This document shows positions 12,401 through 62,690 of a DNA stretch of 64,000 bases, in pieces. The stretch spans positions 132,077-196,076 of IMG/VR virus record IMGVR_UViG_3300045988_110853; one strand, written 5' to 3'. Each line of letters starts with the position of its first letter. The first letter of the stretch is position 1. Both the position numbers and the translations under genes were made by a program. The notes under the pieces were generated by a model. That model had not been told where the DNA came from, did not search any database, and was given only the letters and a program-made list of their open reading frames with translations. This stretch comes from a virus.

Positions 12401-13473
12401 ATATTATCACTATTAATTAAAGAACAAATAATTGGATATTTATCAAACCATTCTGATGGAATAAATCCTTTTTTATAATCTTTTACTTCAACTTTTGGAA
12501 TAATTTGTTTTCTTTCCAGTGAATAAAAAGAAATTTTATTTTGAATTTCTTGAGTATTGTCAAGAATCCAATTTACTAATTCTTTTCCTGTTTTATTACT
12601 TTTATCCCAATCATTAGCATAGGGTTCCATTAATTCAAAAATTTCATCACTTGTCATTAGATAAGTAAATTTATAGAAATCATCAACTTCTCTTTCTCCT
12701 GGTTTAGAAGTAAGATATGCTTTATGAATGGGTCTATCTTCTTTGGTTAAATAGTGCGCGTCTGTTCCAACTACCATTTTTAAATCAAATGCCTTAGCAA
12801 TTTGATAAATTTTATGATTTACCACTATTTGTTCGGCATCTGTAGAAGGCGCGCACTCAAGATAAAAATCTTCTTTTCCAAATACTTTAATACAAAAATT
12901 GATATAATCAATTATTTGATTGTAGTATTTAGTTTGAGTTTCAATATCTTTATTTAATTCAGCTTGAAACATTGGTAAAATACAACTACCAAGTTCTCCG
13001 CCAATACAAGCAGTTGTAGCTATAACGTGCCCTTTATATTGTTCCATTACCATTTCAAGTTCACTCTTTAAGGTAGGAACTCGCTCCATACGCCTATCGA
13101 CATAGCTATGAGTCCAAGCAATAGAACTCAATTCTCTTAATGCTTTATGTCCGATAGCATCTTTAGCGATAAGAATAAAATGGTAATATTTTTGTCCTCT
13201 ATCTCGTGTATCCGTAAGATAAATTTCATTTCCAAGAGCAATAGTAAAATTAGGATTTTCTTCTCTCAATTTTTTCGCAAATTGATTTACTTCCATATGC
13301 GCGGAAAGACATTCGTGGTCTGTAATTGTTATTCCTGATAATCCTAATTCTATTGCTTTATCAATTAGTGCTTGCGGTCTATTAATACAGTCTAGCAAGC
13401 GCAAATTTGAATACATTGTATGATTGTGAATCCCGAAATATGATCTCATTCGCACATTCCTTTCATCTTTCAT
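9460..13473 (-). CDS. dnaE: DNA polymerase III alpha subunit (DnaE-like family C polymerase), about 1337 aa, with one in-frame TAG at 11200-11202.
   Basis: Track ORFs 11200..13473 (PHP domain, GIHNHTMYS...ITDHECLSAHME) and 9460..11172 are in the same frame. They join as ...FDNEMKA[TAG]HLPQELIDKMHKHC.... The combined size matches DnaE. Confidence 0.85.
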
Positions 13474-13745
13474 TTATATTTATATAATACCATATTATTT
13501 AATAACAATCAAATGAAGAAATATAATTATCGCATACAGAACGAATATCTCTTAAAAAATTAGCAAAATCTTTTGATCGAGTTGATATTTTATTCATACT
13601 ATCACAAGCCATAGAATTTAGCCTATCTAATTCTGTATTTAAATTATAGGTAAAAAGTTCTAAATTAGAATTTAAATCCTAAGCCAAATCCGCGTCTTTA
13701 AGAAACATATTATTCTCAAGTATAGCATTAATACTTGAATTTAAA

Positions 13746-14390
13746 TTAGATGCATTTAACATTATCTTCTTCGTCTCCTTGAACTTTAAATTCAGTATCA
13801 TAAATACTATTAAATATATCTACAATAATATAAAAAAGACATCTTAAATGGGGTGGAATCCATTGAGGAGATAAACAAATAAATAGTTCATCAGGAGTAT
13901 CAATCGTTCCTAAATTACATTCTATAATAGGAGTAGAAGAAAAATTAAATTTTCTATCTTCTGGATAATTAGTTGAATCTTCATTTCTAATCCAAACATA
14001 ATTTTCTAATTTTCCTTCTTCAGACAAATACTTCACCCAATTTCCGCAATTTAAATTCTCAATTTTATCTTCAATGTCTTTGTCTGTATAAGCAATATCA
14101 TGATGATGATCTATATTAATTAAAGATATGGTATCATCTATATTTTTATCAATATAAGTAGCAATCATTTCATGCGAAGCAATAAAATGAATGTTCTCTT
14201 TTTTCATACTTTTACTTAATTTTAATAAAAGTTGTAAAACCCTTTTAAAATGAATATAATCAGGTTTAGCAAATTTTAAAATTTCAAAATGAGAACATAA
14301 TGCTTCCCAATCATCAGTTGAATAATTGTTATAAAGTTGAATACAAGGAGACATTATAATATCAAAATCTATTGATAATATTTTTTTCAT
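13746..14390 (-). CDS. Hypothetical protein (214 aa).
   Basis: Track ORF; TAA-delimited. Confidence 0.35.
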   Translation of the reverse strand: MKKILSIDFDIIMSPCIQLYNNYSTDDWEALCSHFEILKFAKPDYIHFKRVLQLLLKLSKSMKKENIHFIASHEMIATYIDKNIDDTISLINIDHHHDIAYTDKDIEDKIENLNCGNWVKYLSEEGKLENYVWIRNEDSTNYPEDRKFNFSSTPIIECNLGTIDTPDELFICLSPQWIPPHLRCLFYIIVDIFNSIYDTEFKVQGDEEDNVKCI

Positions 14391-14393
14391 TTA

Positions 14394-15587
14394 TTACTTC
14401 CTTATAATTACTAGTTTATCACTGGCTCTTGTTGCCATAGTATATAAATATTTTTTATGTTCTTCTTTATCAAAGGGATGATTTTCCTCAAATCCCAATA
14501 CTTTTCCATATTCACTACCTTGAGCTTTCCAACAAGTAATAGCATAAGCATAGGAAAAATCAAGTGGAGGATCAAGGCATTGTTTATTATTTCTTAATTG
14601 ATAACACTAACTACCTGTAAGAGTTCCCTCTCCGGTGATAAGTTGTTTATAATCAATTGGAGTTCCACAAAATTTATCTCCATCACTTAAAACAATTTGA
14701 GTAAACATATAAGTAATAGGAACTTCTGAAATATAATAAGGAACTCGAATATCTTCTGTATAAAAATCTTCAATAGTTCCAACAGTGCCATTAGTTAAAG
14801 CCCATACTCGTTTTTCAGACATAAAATCCCAGTTATTGTGTAATCCAATAATTTTATCTCCAATTTGGGGAACGTCAGGATTAAAACCTTTTCTTTCTCG
14901 AACAAGATTATTTATCTTAGTTCTTGTAGCATTTTTAGCACAAATAATCTAATCAGCCCAATCATACATTTCAGGTATAACTTGACTTTTATCATATACT
15001 CTTACTTGTTTTCCTTCAGGACGATAAGAAATTAAAGATTTACCTTCTCTAATCCACATTGAAAAACGAATAATTTCACTATCTTGCGCTTGACGCATAA
15101 TTTCATCAAGAAAAATGTGTGGTTTATCTAATACATGATTATTTTCATTAGGATCTACAGGTGGCAATTGACCGGGATCTCCAGCCGCGATAATATAAAT
15201 ACCGTGAGTTAACATTAGATCCCATAATTTCTTAGGCAACATTGACACTTCATCAACAACGATTACTTTATACTGCGCCAATTCACTATTATCTCTTGGG
15301 AAGAATTTAAAAGTTCCATTAGCCATCATTTTGGCTTTATATAAGAGTTTGTGCGCGGTCGTAGCATTAGGGCATCCTTTCTGTTGTAGCACGGTCGCGG
15401 CCTTACCTGTAAATGCGACATAACAAACTTCTTCTTCTGGATCAACATCAAGGGCAGAAATAATAAATTTAATTAAAGTGCTTTTTCCACTTCCCGCATA
15501 TCCTGCTATACAAGTCCAACGTTCTCGAGCGTAATAGCGCTCAACCGCAATTTTTAATCCTTCTTCTTGTTTACGAGTTAATTCCAT
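14394..15587 (-). CDS. SF1 DNA helicase (Dda/RecD-like), 397 aa; 2 in-frame TAGs at 14949 and 14607.
   Basis: Walker A GYAGSGKST, Walker B VVDEVSM, and GDPGQLPPV. After read-through of two TAGs the C-terminal motif AITCWKAQGSEYGKV (helicase motif VI type) appears; TAA at 14394. Confidence 0.75.
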
Positions 15588-60775: not shown

Positions 60776-60785
60776 TAAAAGACGA

Positions 60786-61964
60786 TTAATAATTTTTTAA
60801 CATTGTGCTAGTAATTTGATAATAACCGCCCCTCATAGGTTTTCCGTTTTCAACTAGATACTCTAAAAGTTCTGGGCTATTTAATTCTGCTTCTAATTTA
60901 TCTAAATCATCAGCAGTTGCATATAAACCAGAATATACAAAAACCTCTGGACCCACTCTTACATAAGGAATTTTATCGGGAATAATTGTTGTTGAAATAA
61001 CTAATTTTTCTTTATTCATATTAACTAAGCCTTGAGAACGACCAAATTCAAACCATTTTGTATTACCAGAAATAGAACGATTTTCTAGACGCTCTTTATT
61101 AGCCAACATATAAGCGTAAGTCTTAGGTGCTGATTTCAATTCTTCTTCTGTGTGAGGTGGAACAATACACTCTTTCCATTCCTGAGTACCAGCTTTAATA
61201 ATGGGGTGGATAAAAGTATCCTCCAAATCATCAAAATTATCTTTAATAAAAATTCGGTCTGCTAATGTTGCGATACCATTTTGCAGACTTTCATAAGATA
61301 ATCCAATTTTCTCTCTAGTATTGTTCCAAGGGATTTGAATACTTGTTTTTACTTTTGATAATCCAACAATACCAGTATATGTGGAAAATCCATCAAATAA
61401 TTGCTCTTTTGTGAGATCTTCAAAATACCAAAGTAAATTATTTTTTTCAATATCTTCTCTCATTTTTTTACCACTAGTATTTTGAATAAAAGAAAGCGGA
61501 GAAATATATAGTAGACTTCCAGTTGGTTTCAAAAATTTTTGACCAACTTCATAAAAGGCATAATATAAATCATACATACCAAAACAATAAGAATATTGTT
61601 CAATTTCTTGTTTTGTCTCTGGCATTAGATTGTGGATGCGCACATATGGCGGATTTCCAATAACATAATCAAATTTACCAAACCATTCAGTCTATTTAAA
61701 AGCTGAACCTAAAATTACATTATCTGATGGTAATATATTTTGCACTTTTTCGATGATATCAGCATCAATGTCAATAGCAAAAATATGTTCTTTTGGAATA
61801 CCTTTATTTAAAAGTCCCGTAATAAATGCTCCATCACCACAACTATTATCTAAAAATAGAGATGTATCAATTTCTTTTTGGGTTAAATTTAAAATATCAA
61901 TCATATGATTGACAATAGTATCTGGGGTCATAACTTGACCATAGTTTTTTACTTTATCAAACAT
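60786..61964 (-). CDS. N6-adenine DNA methyltransferase (gamma-class, TaqI/Eco57I-like), 392 aa, with one in-frame TAG at 61692.
   Basis: N-terminal VMTPDTIVNHMIDIL, motif I LDNSCGDGAF. After TAG read-through comes DYVIGNPPYVRIH (motif IV NPPY). The two track ORFs are in the same frame. Confidence 0.7.
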
Positions 61965-62568
61965 TTTCTTTTAAACCTCCTATGAATTGCATAATTGCAT
62001 CAGTTAAACAAGGAGAGATATTATCTTCACAATATTGTGCGGTAAAGTTATCATAATCCACTTCAAAATAATATGGGATAAAAGTTAATAAATCCCAGTA
62101 AGCAGATTTATAGGCTAAAAAATTTTTATAATTATCCTTGCTTTTTTGAGTAGGAGTCTCAAAAACTACTTCACCATTATTCTTTTTATGATGAACCTTA
62201 GTAGGAATAAAAATTATTTGCATAATAGGGATACCGGCATTTATAAATAAATCAGATTCACCCTTCATATTTTCATAATAATTATTTGCATTTTTATTAT
62301 ATTCAGAGCGAATTCCCTTAAAATTGATAGCTCCTACGAATTTATCACCATTAAAAATGGCAATATCAACTTTCTTAGAGCCATAAGCCCCAATAAACTC
62401 ATATTCTGAATTGCGCAGACTTCGAGTGGAAAAACCTTCTTTTTCTACCAGTTCAGCAATTTTAGAATGAATTGGTTCTAACAATTTGGGAGAGCGAGTC
62501 GTGGCAGGACCATATTTTTTTTCTGCAACTGCTTTAAATTGATCAGCAAACAACTGTTGAAATTCCAT
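61957..62568 (-). CDS. Putative restriction endonuclease partner of the methyltransferase (203 aa).
   Basis: Immediately upstream of the MTase and overlapping it by 8 nt; possible PD-(D/E)xK-like VDIAIFNGDKFVGAINFKG. No direct homology visible by eye. Confidence 0.35.
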   Translation of the reverse strand: MEFQQLFADQFKAVAEKKYGPATTRSPKLLEPIHSKIAELVEKEGFSTRSLRNSEYEFIGAYGSKKVDIAIFNGDKFVGAINFKGIRSEYNKNANNYYENMKGESDLFINAGIPIMQIIFIPTKVHHKKNNGEVVFETPTQKSKDNYKNFLAYKSAYWDLLTFIPYYFEVDYDNFTAQYCEDNISPCLTDAIMQFIGGLKENV

Positions 62569-62604
62569 ATTTTCTCCTCTTCTTTATATTATAAAAAAAA
62601 ATTT

Positions 62605-62690
62605 TAGCTAAAGTTAATTTTTTTTTCTTATATATTATATCATATGTTTTTATAAAAATCAATTAAGATTTTTATAAAAATATTGAACAT
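62605..62690 (-). promoter_or_regulatory. Promoter motif instance or instances upstream of the R-M genes.
   Basis: tttttataaaaatcaattaagatttttataaaaatattg. Confidence 0.35.

Follow-up and report, generated by a model that had tools for sequence, protein, structure and literature searches.

Our analysis of 64 kb of viral DNA (the window) from a genome of roughly 195 kb points to a repeated module that probably provides sigma-A/sigma-70-type early promoters read by the host RNA polymerase, often coupled to intrinsic terminators and doubling as homology for genetic exchange. The source is a large gut or rumen phage in which TAG is an amino-acid codon, a lytic-type phage of roughly 160–200 kb with a probable low-GC Firmicutes host. 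An earlier note on this DNA had proposed a Firmicutes-like, not a Bacteroidetes, host. This receives indirect support from the strong Shine-Dalgarno use, which the note had also proposed, from the nearest isolate homologues (Enterococcus phages, Bacillus phages, and phAss-1), and from the MAG bins containing relatives, 6/6 of which are of Firmicutes type. The window was compared with 54 related IMG/VR phage loci (1.1 Mb in total).

A search for exact TTGATT-N16–18-TATAAT retrieved 10 sites in the window, every one of them on the minus strand with a spacer of 17 nt, against 0.48 ± 0.61 (maximum 2) expected from shuffles. The minus-strand repeat described in the earlier note is thus real. Scanning the window with a position matrix made from the copies themselves gave 14 strong sites (scores 36–54) and 2 weak variants (16131 and 40545) of an element of about 45 nt, hereafter class I, whose copies are named by the first base of the −35 box. 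At least 14 near-identical sites had been claimed: all 14 were recovered by the matrix, those at 16100 and 40520 as the weak variants, and 23390 and 63481 had been missed. The class I copies all lie on the minus strand (16/16), and the best score on the plus strand of the window, 24, comes from site 52243, which is partly palindromic, read in reverse. The related loci contain 274 occurrences of the element on the strand of the genes and 0 on the opposite strand.

The extended consensus reads tTTGAttTTTttaaAAAaaTAT.aTATAATATaTATAkAAA; downstream of it come a leader rich in A and a ribosome-binding site of the form AAAGGA/GGAG. The −35 box is TTGAYT, the spacer is invariably 17 nt long and contains the dyad ATTTTTWWAAAAAT, and the discriminator downstream of TATAAT is AT-only. 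Information content in the family is highest at all six positions of the −10 box and at the G of the −35 box, although T replaces this G in 8% of the family copies, including the L015/L016 orthologue. An extended −10 (TGn) is present in 3/3 copies with an imperfect −10 and in 2/13 perfect ones (Fisher p about 0.02). TRTG-type −16 motifs, typical of Gram-positive promoters, also occur. When TAG is taken as sense, every copy falls in a short intergenic gap, and the start codon with its ribosome-binding site mostly lies 24–39 nt downstream of the element. The sigma-70/sigma-A reading already offered in the earlier note thus appears sound, as its sequence-level predictions hold (boxes, 17-nt spacing, orientation, start-codon distance, TGn, and a tRNA copy).

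The tRNA copy, P63481 (63437–63481, TTGACA-17-TATAAT), is predicted to drive tRNA-Gly (63290–63364), tRNA-Lys, and tRNA-Cys. It is followed by P62662 (62618–62662, TTGATT-17-TGA-TATAAT), P60763 (60719–60763, upstream of a DUF2828/DUF7788 gene), P59082 (59038–59082, upstream of a major-vault-protein-like gene), P56463 (56419–56463, heading about 10 small genes that form a unit), P52243 (52199–52243, upstream of a 119-aa gene and an RNA ligase gene), P48856 (48812–48856), P47897 (47853–47897), and P46818 (46774–46818), which has the top matrix score. Further along are the weak variant P40545 (40501–40545, TTGCTT-17-TGT-TAATAT), P36587 (36543–36587, TTGACT and TGT-TATAAT, upstream of DUF5662 and gyrB genes), P29803 (29759–29803, upstream of a DNA ligase gene), P25993 (25949–25993, upstream of a winged-helix regulator gene), P23390 (23346–23390, TTGACT), the weak variant P16131 (16087–16131, TTGACT-17-TGG-TATTAT), and P13512 (13468–13512, TTGATT-17-TGG-TATTAT, upstream of the Pol III alpha gene). 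According to the model that we favor, unmodified host sigma-A RNA polymerase would recognize these modules at the start of infection. Transcription would begin at about A+7 or +8, continue through the short A-rich leader with its strong ribosome-binding site, and yield short units comprising host-takeover, RNA-repair, and replication genes and the tRNA cluster.

The extended conservation could instead reflect regulation rather than promoter strength, the spacer dyad being an operator for a dimeric phage DNA-binding protein, such as the winged-helix protein at 25549–25926, that switches the whole promoter class off or on. Conservation is indeed dyad-symmetric (A4/T19, T7–9/A14–16), the first gene after P25993 encodes a MarR/TrmB-like regulator, and a second TTTTTATAAAAA box upstream of the −35 of P62662 makes a 14-bp inverted repeat around it. 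However, a second upstream copy of the dyad is found at two sites only, P62662 and P60763, the conservation figures are partly circular because the sites were chosen by the matrix, and T-tract/A-tract spacers may be a mere structural feature of strong AT-rich promoters. We regard such an operator as possible rather than likely; it would supplement the host-polymerase explanation, not exclude it.

The timing of expression is suggested by the distribution of TAG. The minus-strand block at 43608–63799, which holds the nine best class I promoters, contains no more than 2 TAG in frame among about 6,700 codons, versus about 55 elsewhere in the window, and the pattern recurs in relatives when inserted elements are left out. 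Genes expressed before the code switch have been proposed to avoid recoded stops (10.1101/2021.08.26.457843), and the block with its promoters matches this proposal, which is why we take it as a candidate early region. The link between promoter class and TAG-free block is made in this analysis and is a correlation. In other recoded gut phages (Borges et al., 10.1101/2021.08.26.457843; phAss-1, PMC10607447), TAG is likewise sense and presumed pre-switch genes avoid it in frame; promoters are not described in either text, from which the word is absent. The recoding, missed by the earlier reader, alters the gene map of the window and leaves the promoter conclusion as it was.

The same sites could also be middle rather than early promoters, read by a phage-encoded sigma factor or RNA polymerase or by a host polymerase modified by the phage. 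Large phages often encode their own transcription factors, and the preference for TTGATT over TTGACA, the conserved spacer dyad, and the ATATATA discriminator exceed what sigma-A needs, just as some family copies lack the −35 G. Several replication-region units contain TAG codons, so their full translation before the code switch is impossible. Moreover, a more canonical class II (TTGACA, A-tract/T-tract spacer, TGn) coexists with class I, and the two classes could correspond to two recognition modes. It comprises, all on the minus strand, P43433 (43389–43433, sigma-A-like, with TTGCGA, an A6T4 spacer, and TGC-TATAAT) and promoters at 28593–28637 (TTGACA, A7T6 spacer, TAAAAT), 28341–28385 (TTGACA-17-TATAAT, 12/12 matches), and 6049–6093 (TTGACA-17-TGTGA-TATAAT, beyond the range of the earlier reader). 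Nevertheless, the geometry and hexamers of class I are exactly those of the sigma-70 housekeeping type, TGn compensation included, and its best copies head the block that is almost free of TAG, which fits expression at a stage when no phage product is yet present. Neither a sigma factor nor an RNA polymerase gene was detected among the roughly 65 ORFs scanned in this 64-kb part of the roughly 195-kb genome. Overall, we consider recognition by a phage factor unlikely.

Use of the host enzyme would have precedents. Compared with host promoters, the early promoters of T4 and T5 have a longer consensus with a higher AT content. Like the role proposed here for class I, they are phage promoters read by unmodified host sigma-70 polymerase (T4 review PMC2988021), but they have another consensus and another host group, and the TnAn dyad spacer is specific to the present phage family. 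In SPO1, a large Firmicutes phage, the host-takeover module relies on early sigma-A promoters (Stewart et al. 1998, cited in PMC6873191) and, as summarized in the citing article, resembles the present arrangement in its clustered short early operons, near-consensus housekeeping-sigma promoters, very strong ribosome-binding sites, and small host-takeover genes. The two have no sequence relationship, and the module described here lies upstream of replication genes and tRNAs as well. To our knowledge, no role in cassette exchange has been described for the SPO1 module.

About half of the class I modules appear to carry an intrinsic terminator immediately upstream of or overlapping the −35 box, which would insulate the unit from the preceding one. 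A hairpin of 11–18 pairs with a T-run, 0–11 nt before or overlapping the −35, adjoins 7/16 promoters. All seven are on the minus strand: 59092–59127 (16 bp and T-run, 10 nt before the −35 of P59082), 56474–56500 (11 bp with 6 GC pairs, after the vault-protein-like gene and 11 nt before P56463), 48861–48886 (5 nt before P48856), 47895–47921 (overlapping the −35 of P47897, whose TTG is the 3′ end of the stem), 40547–40585 (18 bp, 2 nt before P40545), 29805–29829 (after gyrA, 2 nt before P29803), and 23390–23417 (its stem overlapping the −35 of P23390). Most units had been said to end in paired, perfect hairpins of 11–16 bp; adjoining hairpins do occur, but about half of the modules lack one, 4/7 are perfect, and they are single, not paired. 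Five promoters have no hairpin and follow immediately on the stop codon of the preceding gene. Three further hairpins lie 100–136 nt upstream of a promoter, among them 43569–43604 (minus strand, 15 bp, after a Band7 gene and 136 nt before P43433) and the bidirectional 36687–36724 (17 bp, 100 nt before P36587). Minus-strand hairpins are also found between tRNA-Lys and tRNA-Cys (62797–62833, 16 bp, terminator-like), at most 27 nt before a TAG-rich gene without recognizable promoter (38453–38484), directly before a TAG-containing GIY-YIG gene (27971–27999), and at 16601–16636 (15 bp). The window has 22 hairpins with a perfect stem of 9 bp or more, versus 1–5 in shuffles, and T-run hairpins are over-represented (19/15/16 observed, 8–10 expected). 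In the family, a structure of −14 kcal/mol or stronger lies just upstream of 45% of 193 distinct copies versus 5–7% of control windows. Hairpin position is conserved in relatives while hairpin sequence is not: the one after the vault-protein-like gene is present in every relative, each time with an unrelated stem.

Class I copies recur every 1–5 kb in a single orientation with 45–70 nt of near-identical sequence, so they may also act as portable homology at which cassettes of promoter, genes, and sometimes terminator would be inserted, deleted, and exchanged between related phages. A 1.9-kb mobile cassette (60770–62680, minus strand) consists of P62662, its left boundary, a 203-aa gene, and an Eco57I-type methylase gene, and ends at P60763, its right boundary. 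In some close relatives it is missing or replaced by a single hybrid promoter, as in L003, where one hybrid promoter stands for promoter-cassette-promoter. In L012 and L014, identity drops at the two promoter copies from 96–97% in the methylase cassette to about 72% in the neighboring genes, whose counterparts in the sister phages L013 and L023 lack the cassette between them. Similarly, a self-contained radical-SAM cassette (40546–43491, minus strand), formed by P43433, four genes including the radical-SAM gene, and the terminator at its 3′ end, is absent from six close relatives, and the right boundary of this 2.9-kb indel is exactly the start of the −35 of P40545. Breakpoints exactly at a −35 box were seen at 60763, 59083, and 40545. 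This evidence is tempered, since indels are expected in intergenic DNA anyway. Most replication-region indels are insertions of 0.6–1.2 kb away from promoters, of homing-endonuclease size and including GIY-YIG genes, and promoter-mediated exchange thus explains only part of the plasticity. Even so, the insulated cassettes of the earlier note gain more support than its reader could see, the promoter-bounded cassettes being polymorphic and laterally exchanged. Its alternative of recent spread or strong selection was overstated: family-wide selection, together with some recent spread, underlies the near-identity of the copies.

It is very improbable that the repeats serve mainly as signals for recombination, packaging, or replication and resemble promoters only incidentally, even though several indel and transfer boundaries coincide with them, given their absolute co-orientation with genes, the fixed distance to ribosome-binding site and start codon, the information peaks in two hexamers at 17-nt spacing, the TGn compensation, the many indels unconnected with the repeat, and the maintenance of most copies at orthologous positions in relatives without rearrangement.

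Promoter modules at cassette edges are a pattern already known from T4-type phages, whose promoter-early stem-loops (PeSLs; Arbiol et al. 2010, PMC2839356; Comeau et al. 2014, PMC4122927) likewise combine a repeated strong sigma-70-like early promoter with a terminator stem-loop upstream of or overlapping the −35, with a ribosome-binding site and start codon at the end. Both PeSLs and the present modules cluster in accessory, plastic genome regions, and both flank insertions, deletions, and replacements between close relatives, including the pattern of a cassette enclosed by two motifs in one phage and a single hybrid motif in another. In this respect the class I promoters resemble PeSL cassettes, lying at edges where gene cassettes are gained, lost, and swapped. 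For PeSLs, experiments have demonstrated promoter activity, terminator activity, and mini-circles; for the modules described here, activity is predicted from sequence. The lineages also differ, with T4 gp43 and Gram-negative hosts for PeSLs versus Pol III-alpha/gyrase replication genes, TAG as sense, and a probable Firmicutes host here, and the stems of the present hairpins are not polyG/polyC.

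The hexamer pair TTGATT-N16-18-TATAAT occurs ten times in the window, in all ten cases on the minus strand and with a 17-nt spacer. Chance matches in AT-rich DNA are excluded as the source of these repeats, since dinucleotide-preserving shuffles gave an expectation of only 0.48 ± 0.61. A position matrix built from the 10 exact copies and their one-mismatch relatives detected 14 strong sites, with the first base of the −35 box at 63481, 62662, 60763, 59082, 56463, 52243, 48856, 47897, 46818, 36587, 29803, 25993, 23390 and 13512, and two weaker variants at 16131 and 40545. All 16 sites of this predicted promoter class (class I, each copy named P followed by the coordinate of its first −35 base) lie on the minus strand. 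The scan recovered each of the 14 sites proposed in an earlier note, those around 16100 and 40520 being the weak variants, and added P23390 and P63481, which had been overlooked.

The spacer measures 17 nt at all 16 sites, and hexamers and spacing agree with those of sigma-70/sigma-A promoters (17 ± 1 bp). The −35 box is TTGATT at 12 of the 16 sites (TTGACT, TTGACA or TTGCTT at the others), and the −10 box is TATAAT at 13. The three deviating copies carry TATTAT (P13512 and P16131) or TAATAT (P40545), and all three have an extended −10 TGn, compared to 2 of the 13 copies with a perfect −10 (Fisher p about 0.02), which is the compensation expected for recognition by the sigma-70 family. Information is highest at the TTGA of the −35 and at all six −10 positions. 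Beyond the hexamers, the consensus reads tTTGAttTTTttaaAAAaaTAT.aTATAATATaTATAkAAA; an A-rich leader and a ribosome-binding site of the form AAAGGA/GGAG come next. Four copies contain the complete −16 motif TRTG, a feature typical of Gram-positive promoters. A Bacteroidetes-type promoter (−33 TTTG/−7 TAnnTTTG, with weak Shine-Dalgarno use) is contradicted by the TTGAYT-17-TATAAT consensus and by the strong Shine-Dalgarno use. The spacer also holds a conserved dyad, ATTTTTWWAAAAAT, with a second copy upstream of the −35 at P62662 and P60763; this dyad is possibly a shared operator for shut-off.

Every class I site is intergenic and on the coding strand. Most copies are followed, 24–39 nt downstream, by a start codon with a ribosome-binding site, the exception in placement being P63481, which precedes tRNA-Gly. 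As gene starts vary among relatives, aligning the region upstream of the vault-protein-like gene was uninformative, and we relied instead on matrix scans and per-locus inspection. Across 54 gene-oriented related loci (1.1 Mb), the matrix matches split 274 to 0 in favour of the gene strand, a bias that persists despite the AT-rich, partly palindromic nature of the element.

Terminator-like hairpins numbered 19, 15 and 16 against 8–10 expected, and the window contains 22 perfect stems of at least 9 bp compared to 1–5 in shuffles. At 7 of the 16 promoters, a hairpin of 11–18 pairs (perfect in four cases) with a T-run ends 0–11 nt before the −35 or overlaps it; three more hairpins lie 100–136 nt upstream of a promoter, and five promoters directly adjoin the upstream stop codon. 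Family-wide, a structure of −14 kcal/mol or stronger is found in the 50 nt upstream of 45% of 193 distinct copies, versus 5–7% of control windows, the copies that lack an upstream stem-loop being bare promoters. The earlier note had described paired perfect hairpins ending most units; adjacent hairpins do exist, but they are single and concern about half of the units. At the 3′ end of the vault-protein-like gene, a strong hairpin with a T-run is present in every relative, from 98% down to 60% protein identity, while the stem sequences are unrelated and in some relatives the 3′ arm provides the −35 box. Constancy of the hairpin with unrelated stems points to selection acting on structure and location, the pattern that intrinsic terminators should show. 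Plus-strand genes (1189-3386) converge with minus-strand genes at a 24-bp perfect hairpin (3366-3419), which probably terminates transcription from both sides at a module change. Beyond the strong predicted terminators at 38426-38484, 27954-27999 and 16577-16636, TAG-containing genes start within 17–27 nt and have no recognisable sigma-A promoter; they may depend on read-through, antitermination or an unrecognised, possibly late, promoter class.

A generic sigma-A scan revealed a second, smaller class of predicted minus-strand promoters at 43433, 28637, 28385 and 6093 (class II). These have TTGACA and mostly a TGn; within their spacer an A-tract precedes a T-tract, the reverse of the order in class I. 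The same scan found a near-perfect plus-strand site at 36623 (TTGACA-18-TGT-TATAAT), antisense to the genes. This predicted promoter faces a bidirectional 17-bp hairpin at 36687-36724, an arrangement that could yield a short RNA (about 60 nt) with an antisense or regulatory role. The site is kept in close relatives; more distant ones gave no match to compare.

The window has 31% GC and carries nearly all of its genes on the minus strand. They include replication genes (Pol III alpha, DnaB, a primase-like protein, RecJ, gyrase A and B, DNA ligase), nucleotide genes (anaerobic ribonucleotide reductase, dUTPase) and an accessory cluster at 45020-60697 (minus strand). This cluster comprises a major-vault-protein-like gene with shoulder and vault repeat domains, a DUF2828/DUF7788 vWA gene, RNA ligase, RlaP, cREC_REC, three metallophosphatases, an AAA_33 kinase, NADAR, Macro and SPFH/Band7, and from these domains it looks like an RNA repair or counter-defence set. 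The gene called Ro60-like in the earlier note is the DUF2828/DUF7788 vWA gene. A search of the literature for phages carrying vault or Ro60-like genes found nothing relevant. Among isolated phages, a nucleotide search gave no close match, only short hits at 70–78% identity; the IMG/VR family, in turn, shares these genes at 60–98% amino-acid identity, on contigs that reach about 200 kb.

TAG is a sense codon for this phage (code-15-like). Both Pol III alpha (9460-13473) and NrdD (6562-8832) are single frames with one in-frame TAG each, spanned by Pfam domains; minus-strand examples of sense TAG across the window are at 11200-11202, 7936-7938 and 23229-23231. RecJ (6 TAG), a lysozyme-amidase (7 TAG), DnaB, a helicase, the radical-SAM protein and two GIY-YIG endonucleases are whole only with TAG read-through, and a TAG of one relative aligns to a Gln of the window. 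Given these codons, we dropped the standard-code ORF map, in which Pol III and NrdD were split and long non-coding gaps appeared. With TAG as sense, coding density reaches 94% and every promoter copy falls in a short intergenic gap. The Rfam search of the window found only three tRNAs (tRNA-Gly, -Lys and -Cys), none of them a suppressor.

The recoded codons are unevenly distributed. The block 43608-63799, which holds the nine best class I copies, has at most 2 in-frame TAG in about 6,700 codons, compared with about 55 across the remainder of the window. Whole-locus TAG density in the relatives seemed to speak against a TAG-free block; per-ORF mapping places these codons in inserted endonuclease or radical-SAM cassettes and in a region beyond the window, the same block being otherwise TAG-free. 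Genes that have to be translated ahead of the code switch should avoid recoded stops (10.1101/2021.08.26.457843), and the codon content suggests that 43608-63799 is probably a standard-code early region. That the TAG-poor block carries the best class I copies gives independent, correlative support for early promoters read by the unmodified host machinery.

We then compared the window with a dozen relatives at 90–96% nucleotide identity, among which several indels end at promoter modules. The segment from 62703 to 60659, made of P62662, a 203-aa gene, an Eco57I-type methylase gene and P60763 with its leader, is absent from loci L001 and L002, where tRNA-Cys runs straight into the ribosome-binding site of the DUF2828 gene. 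At this place L003 has one hybrid promoter, with the upstream half of P62662 and the downstream half of P60763, and in L009 a 3.7-kb stretch of different DNA extends as far as the first −35 base of P60763. In five relatives, an ORF of 350–362 bp is inserted exactly at the −35 of P59082. A 2,945-bp unit that runs from P43433, a class II promoter, through four genes (one of them the radical-SAM gene) to a terminator is missing from six relatives, with the junction exactly at the −35 of P40545. The clearest case is that of L012 and L014, whose methylase cassette is 96–97% identical to that of the window on a backbone of only about 72% identity, the step falling at the two promoter copies; their sisters L013 and L023 lack the cassette.

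Not all indels are promoter-mediated. Motif-bounded indels and a hybrid motif at a deletion site are both found, but many other indels are off-motif, and those of the replication region are mostly insertions of 0.6–1.2 kb away from promoters. Promoter homology may mediate the exchanges, or the promoters may only mark tolerated insertion sites. An indel of any kind is more likely to survive in intergenic DNA, which counts against the promoter-specific reading. The accessory block (46.8–63.5 kb), whose gene order is scrambled among relatives, has nine class I copies within 17 kb, versus seven in 27 kb of the replication region; more distant relatives show extensive rearrangement of the block, and promoters separate the pieces. 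The relatives also carry insertions of 0.75–1.06 kb at other gene junctions (window positions 53306/53283, 51838/51836, 48141/48100, 35911/35903, 32698/32705 and 21245/21247), one of which, L002 15792-16583, has four in-frame TAG. The replication-region insertion that the window itself carries is a GIY-YIG homing-endonuclease gene at 33297-33986, between gyrB and gyrA, which most relatives lack.

Among described systems, the nearest counterpart is the PeSL of T4-type phages. PeSLs are recurring composites of a terminator stem-loop and a strong sigma-70-like early promoter; they are dense in plastic regions and lie at indel boundaries, where two motifs plus a cassette alternate with one hybrid motif (PMC2839356, PMC4122927). 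The same alternation is seen here, and class I copies are likewise enriched in the plastic accessory region. However, only about half of the class I copies bear a stem-loop (7/16 here, 45% family-wide), and the carrier is not a T4-type myovirus but an unrelated lineage with TAG recoding, a probable Gram-positive host and a replication module of Pol III alpha, DnaB and gyrase A/B. T4-like phages have no nucleotide similarity to the window, in which no structural genes were seen. Promoter and terminator activity, as well as excised mini-circles, were demonstrated by experiment for PeSLs, while the class I element is known from sequence. The element also has a parallel in SPO1, whose early host-takeover module is promoter-dense (PMC6873191).

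Taken together, we tentatively propose, as one possible reading, that an early, pre-switch regulon in the standard code, with the vault-protein-like, DUF2828/vWA and RNA-repair genes among its members, is marked by a single promoter class, and that the same promoter-terminator modules would be the junctions at which self-expressing cassettes move between phages about 28% diverged. One element of 45–70 nt might thus organise transcriptional timing, genetic-code timing and lateral gene flow, the spacer dyad possibly serving for shut-off. Promoter-bounded cassette shuffling, so far from T4-type phages of Gram-negative bacteria, would extend to an unrelated lineage, and the promoter class offers a testable marker of genes needing expression before the TAG code switch.

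The host is probably a Gram-positive, Firmicutes-like bacterium, as four indirect lines suggest, in agreement with the earlier note, which favoured Firmicutes over Bacteroidetes. The promoter type is canonical, and Shine-Dalgarno matches of at least 5 nt precede 38 of 92 ORFs but only 7 of 92 control positions. For Pol III alpha, the closest homologues from isolates belong to phAss-1 and to Enterococcus and Bacillus phages; phAss-1 is itself TAG-recoded, with a guessed Clostridia host (PMC10607447). The six MAG bins containing relatives are labelled Clostridium, Mollicutes, Eubacteriales, Agathobacter, Acutalibacteraceae and Selenomonadaceae. The element itself supports a Firmicutes host for the family, and its near-consensus modules could double as strong portable promoters for low-GC Gram-positive bacteria. 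For this uncultured family of large recoded phages, about 20 predicted promoters and 13 predicted terminators provide a ready transcription map.

Two further observations concern single genes. The gene downstream of P23390 (23330-22765, minus strand), encoding a protein with a CxxC...HPxC motif, has a strong ribosome-binding site and no ATG, GTG or TTG at the expected start; an ATA or ATT is in frame 3–9 nt past the GGAG, and an in-frame TAG is conserved in six close relatives. In the close relative L004 (3360-3816), tRNA-Gly is interrupted near the anticodon loop by a 455-bp insertion, at window 63328/63329 (gene 63290-63364); this is possibly a phage tRNA gene with a group I intron.
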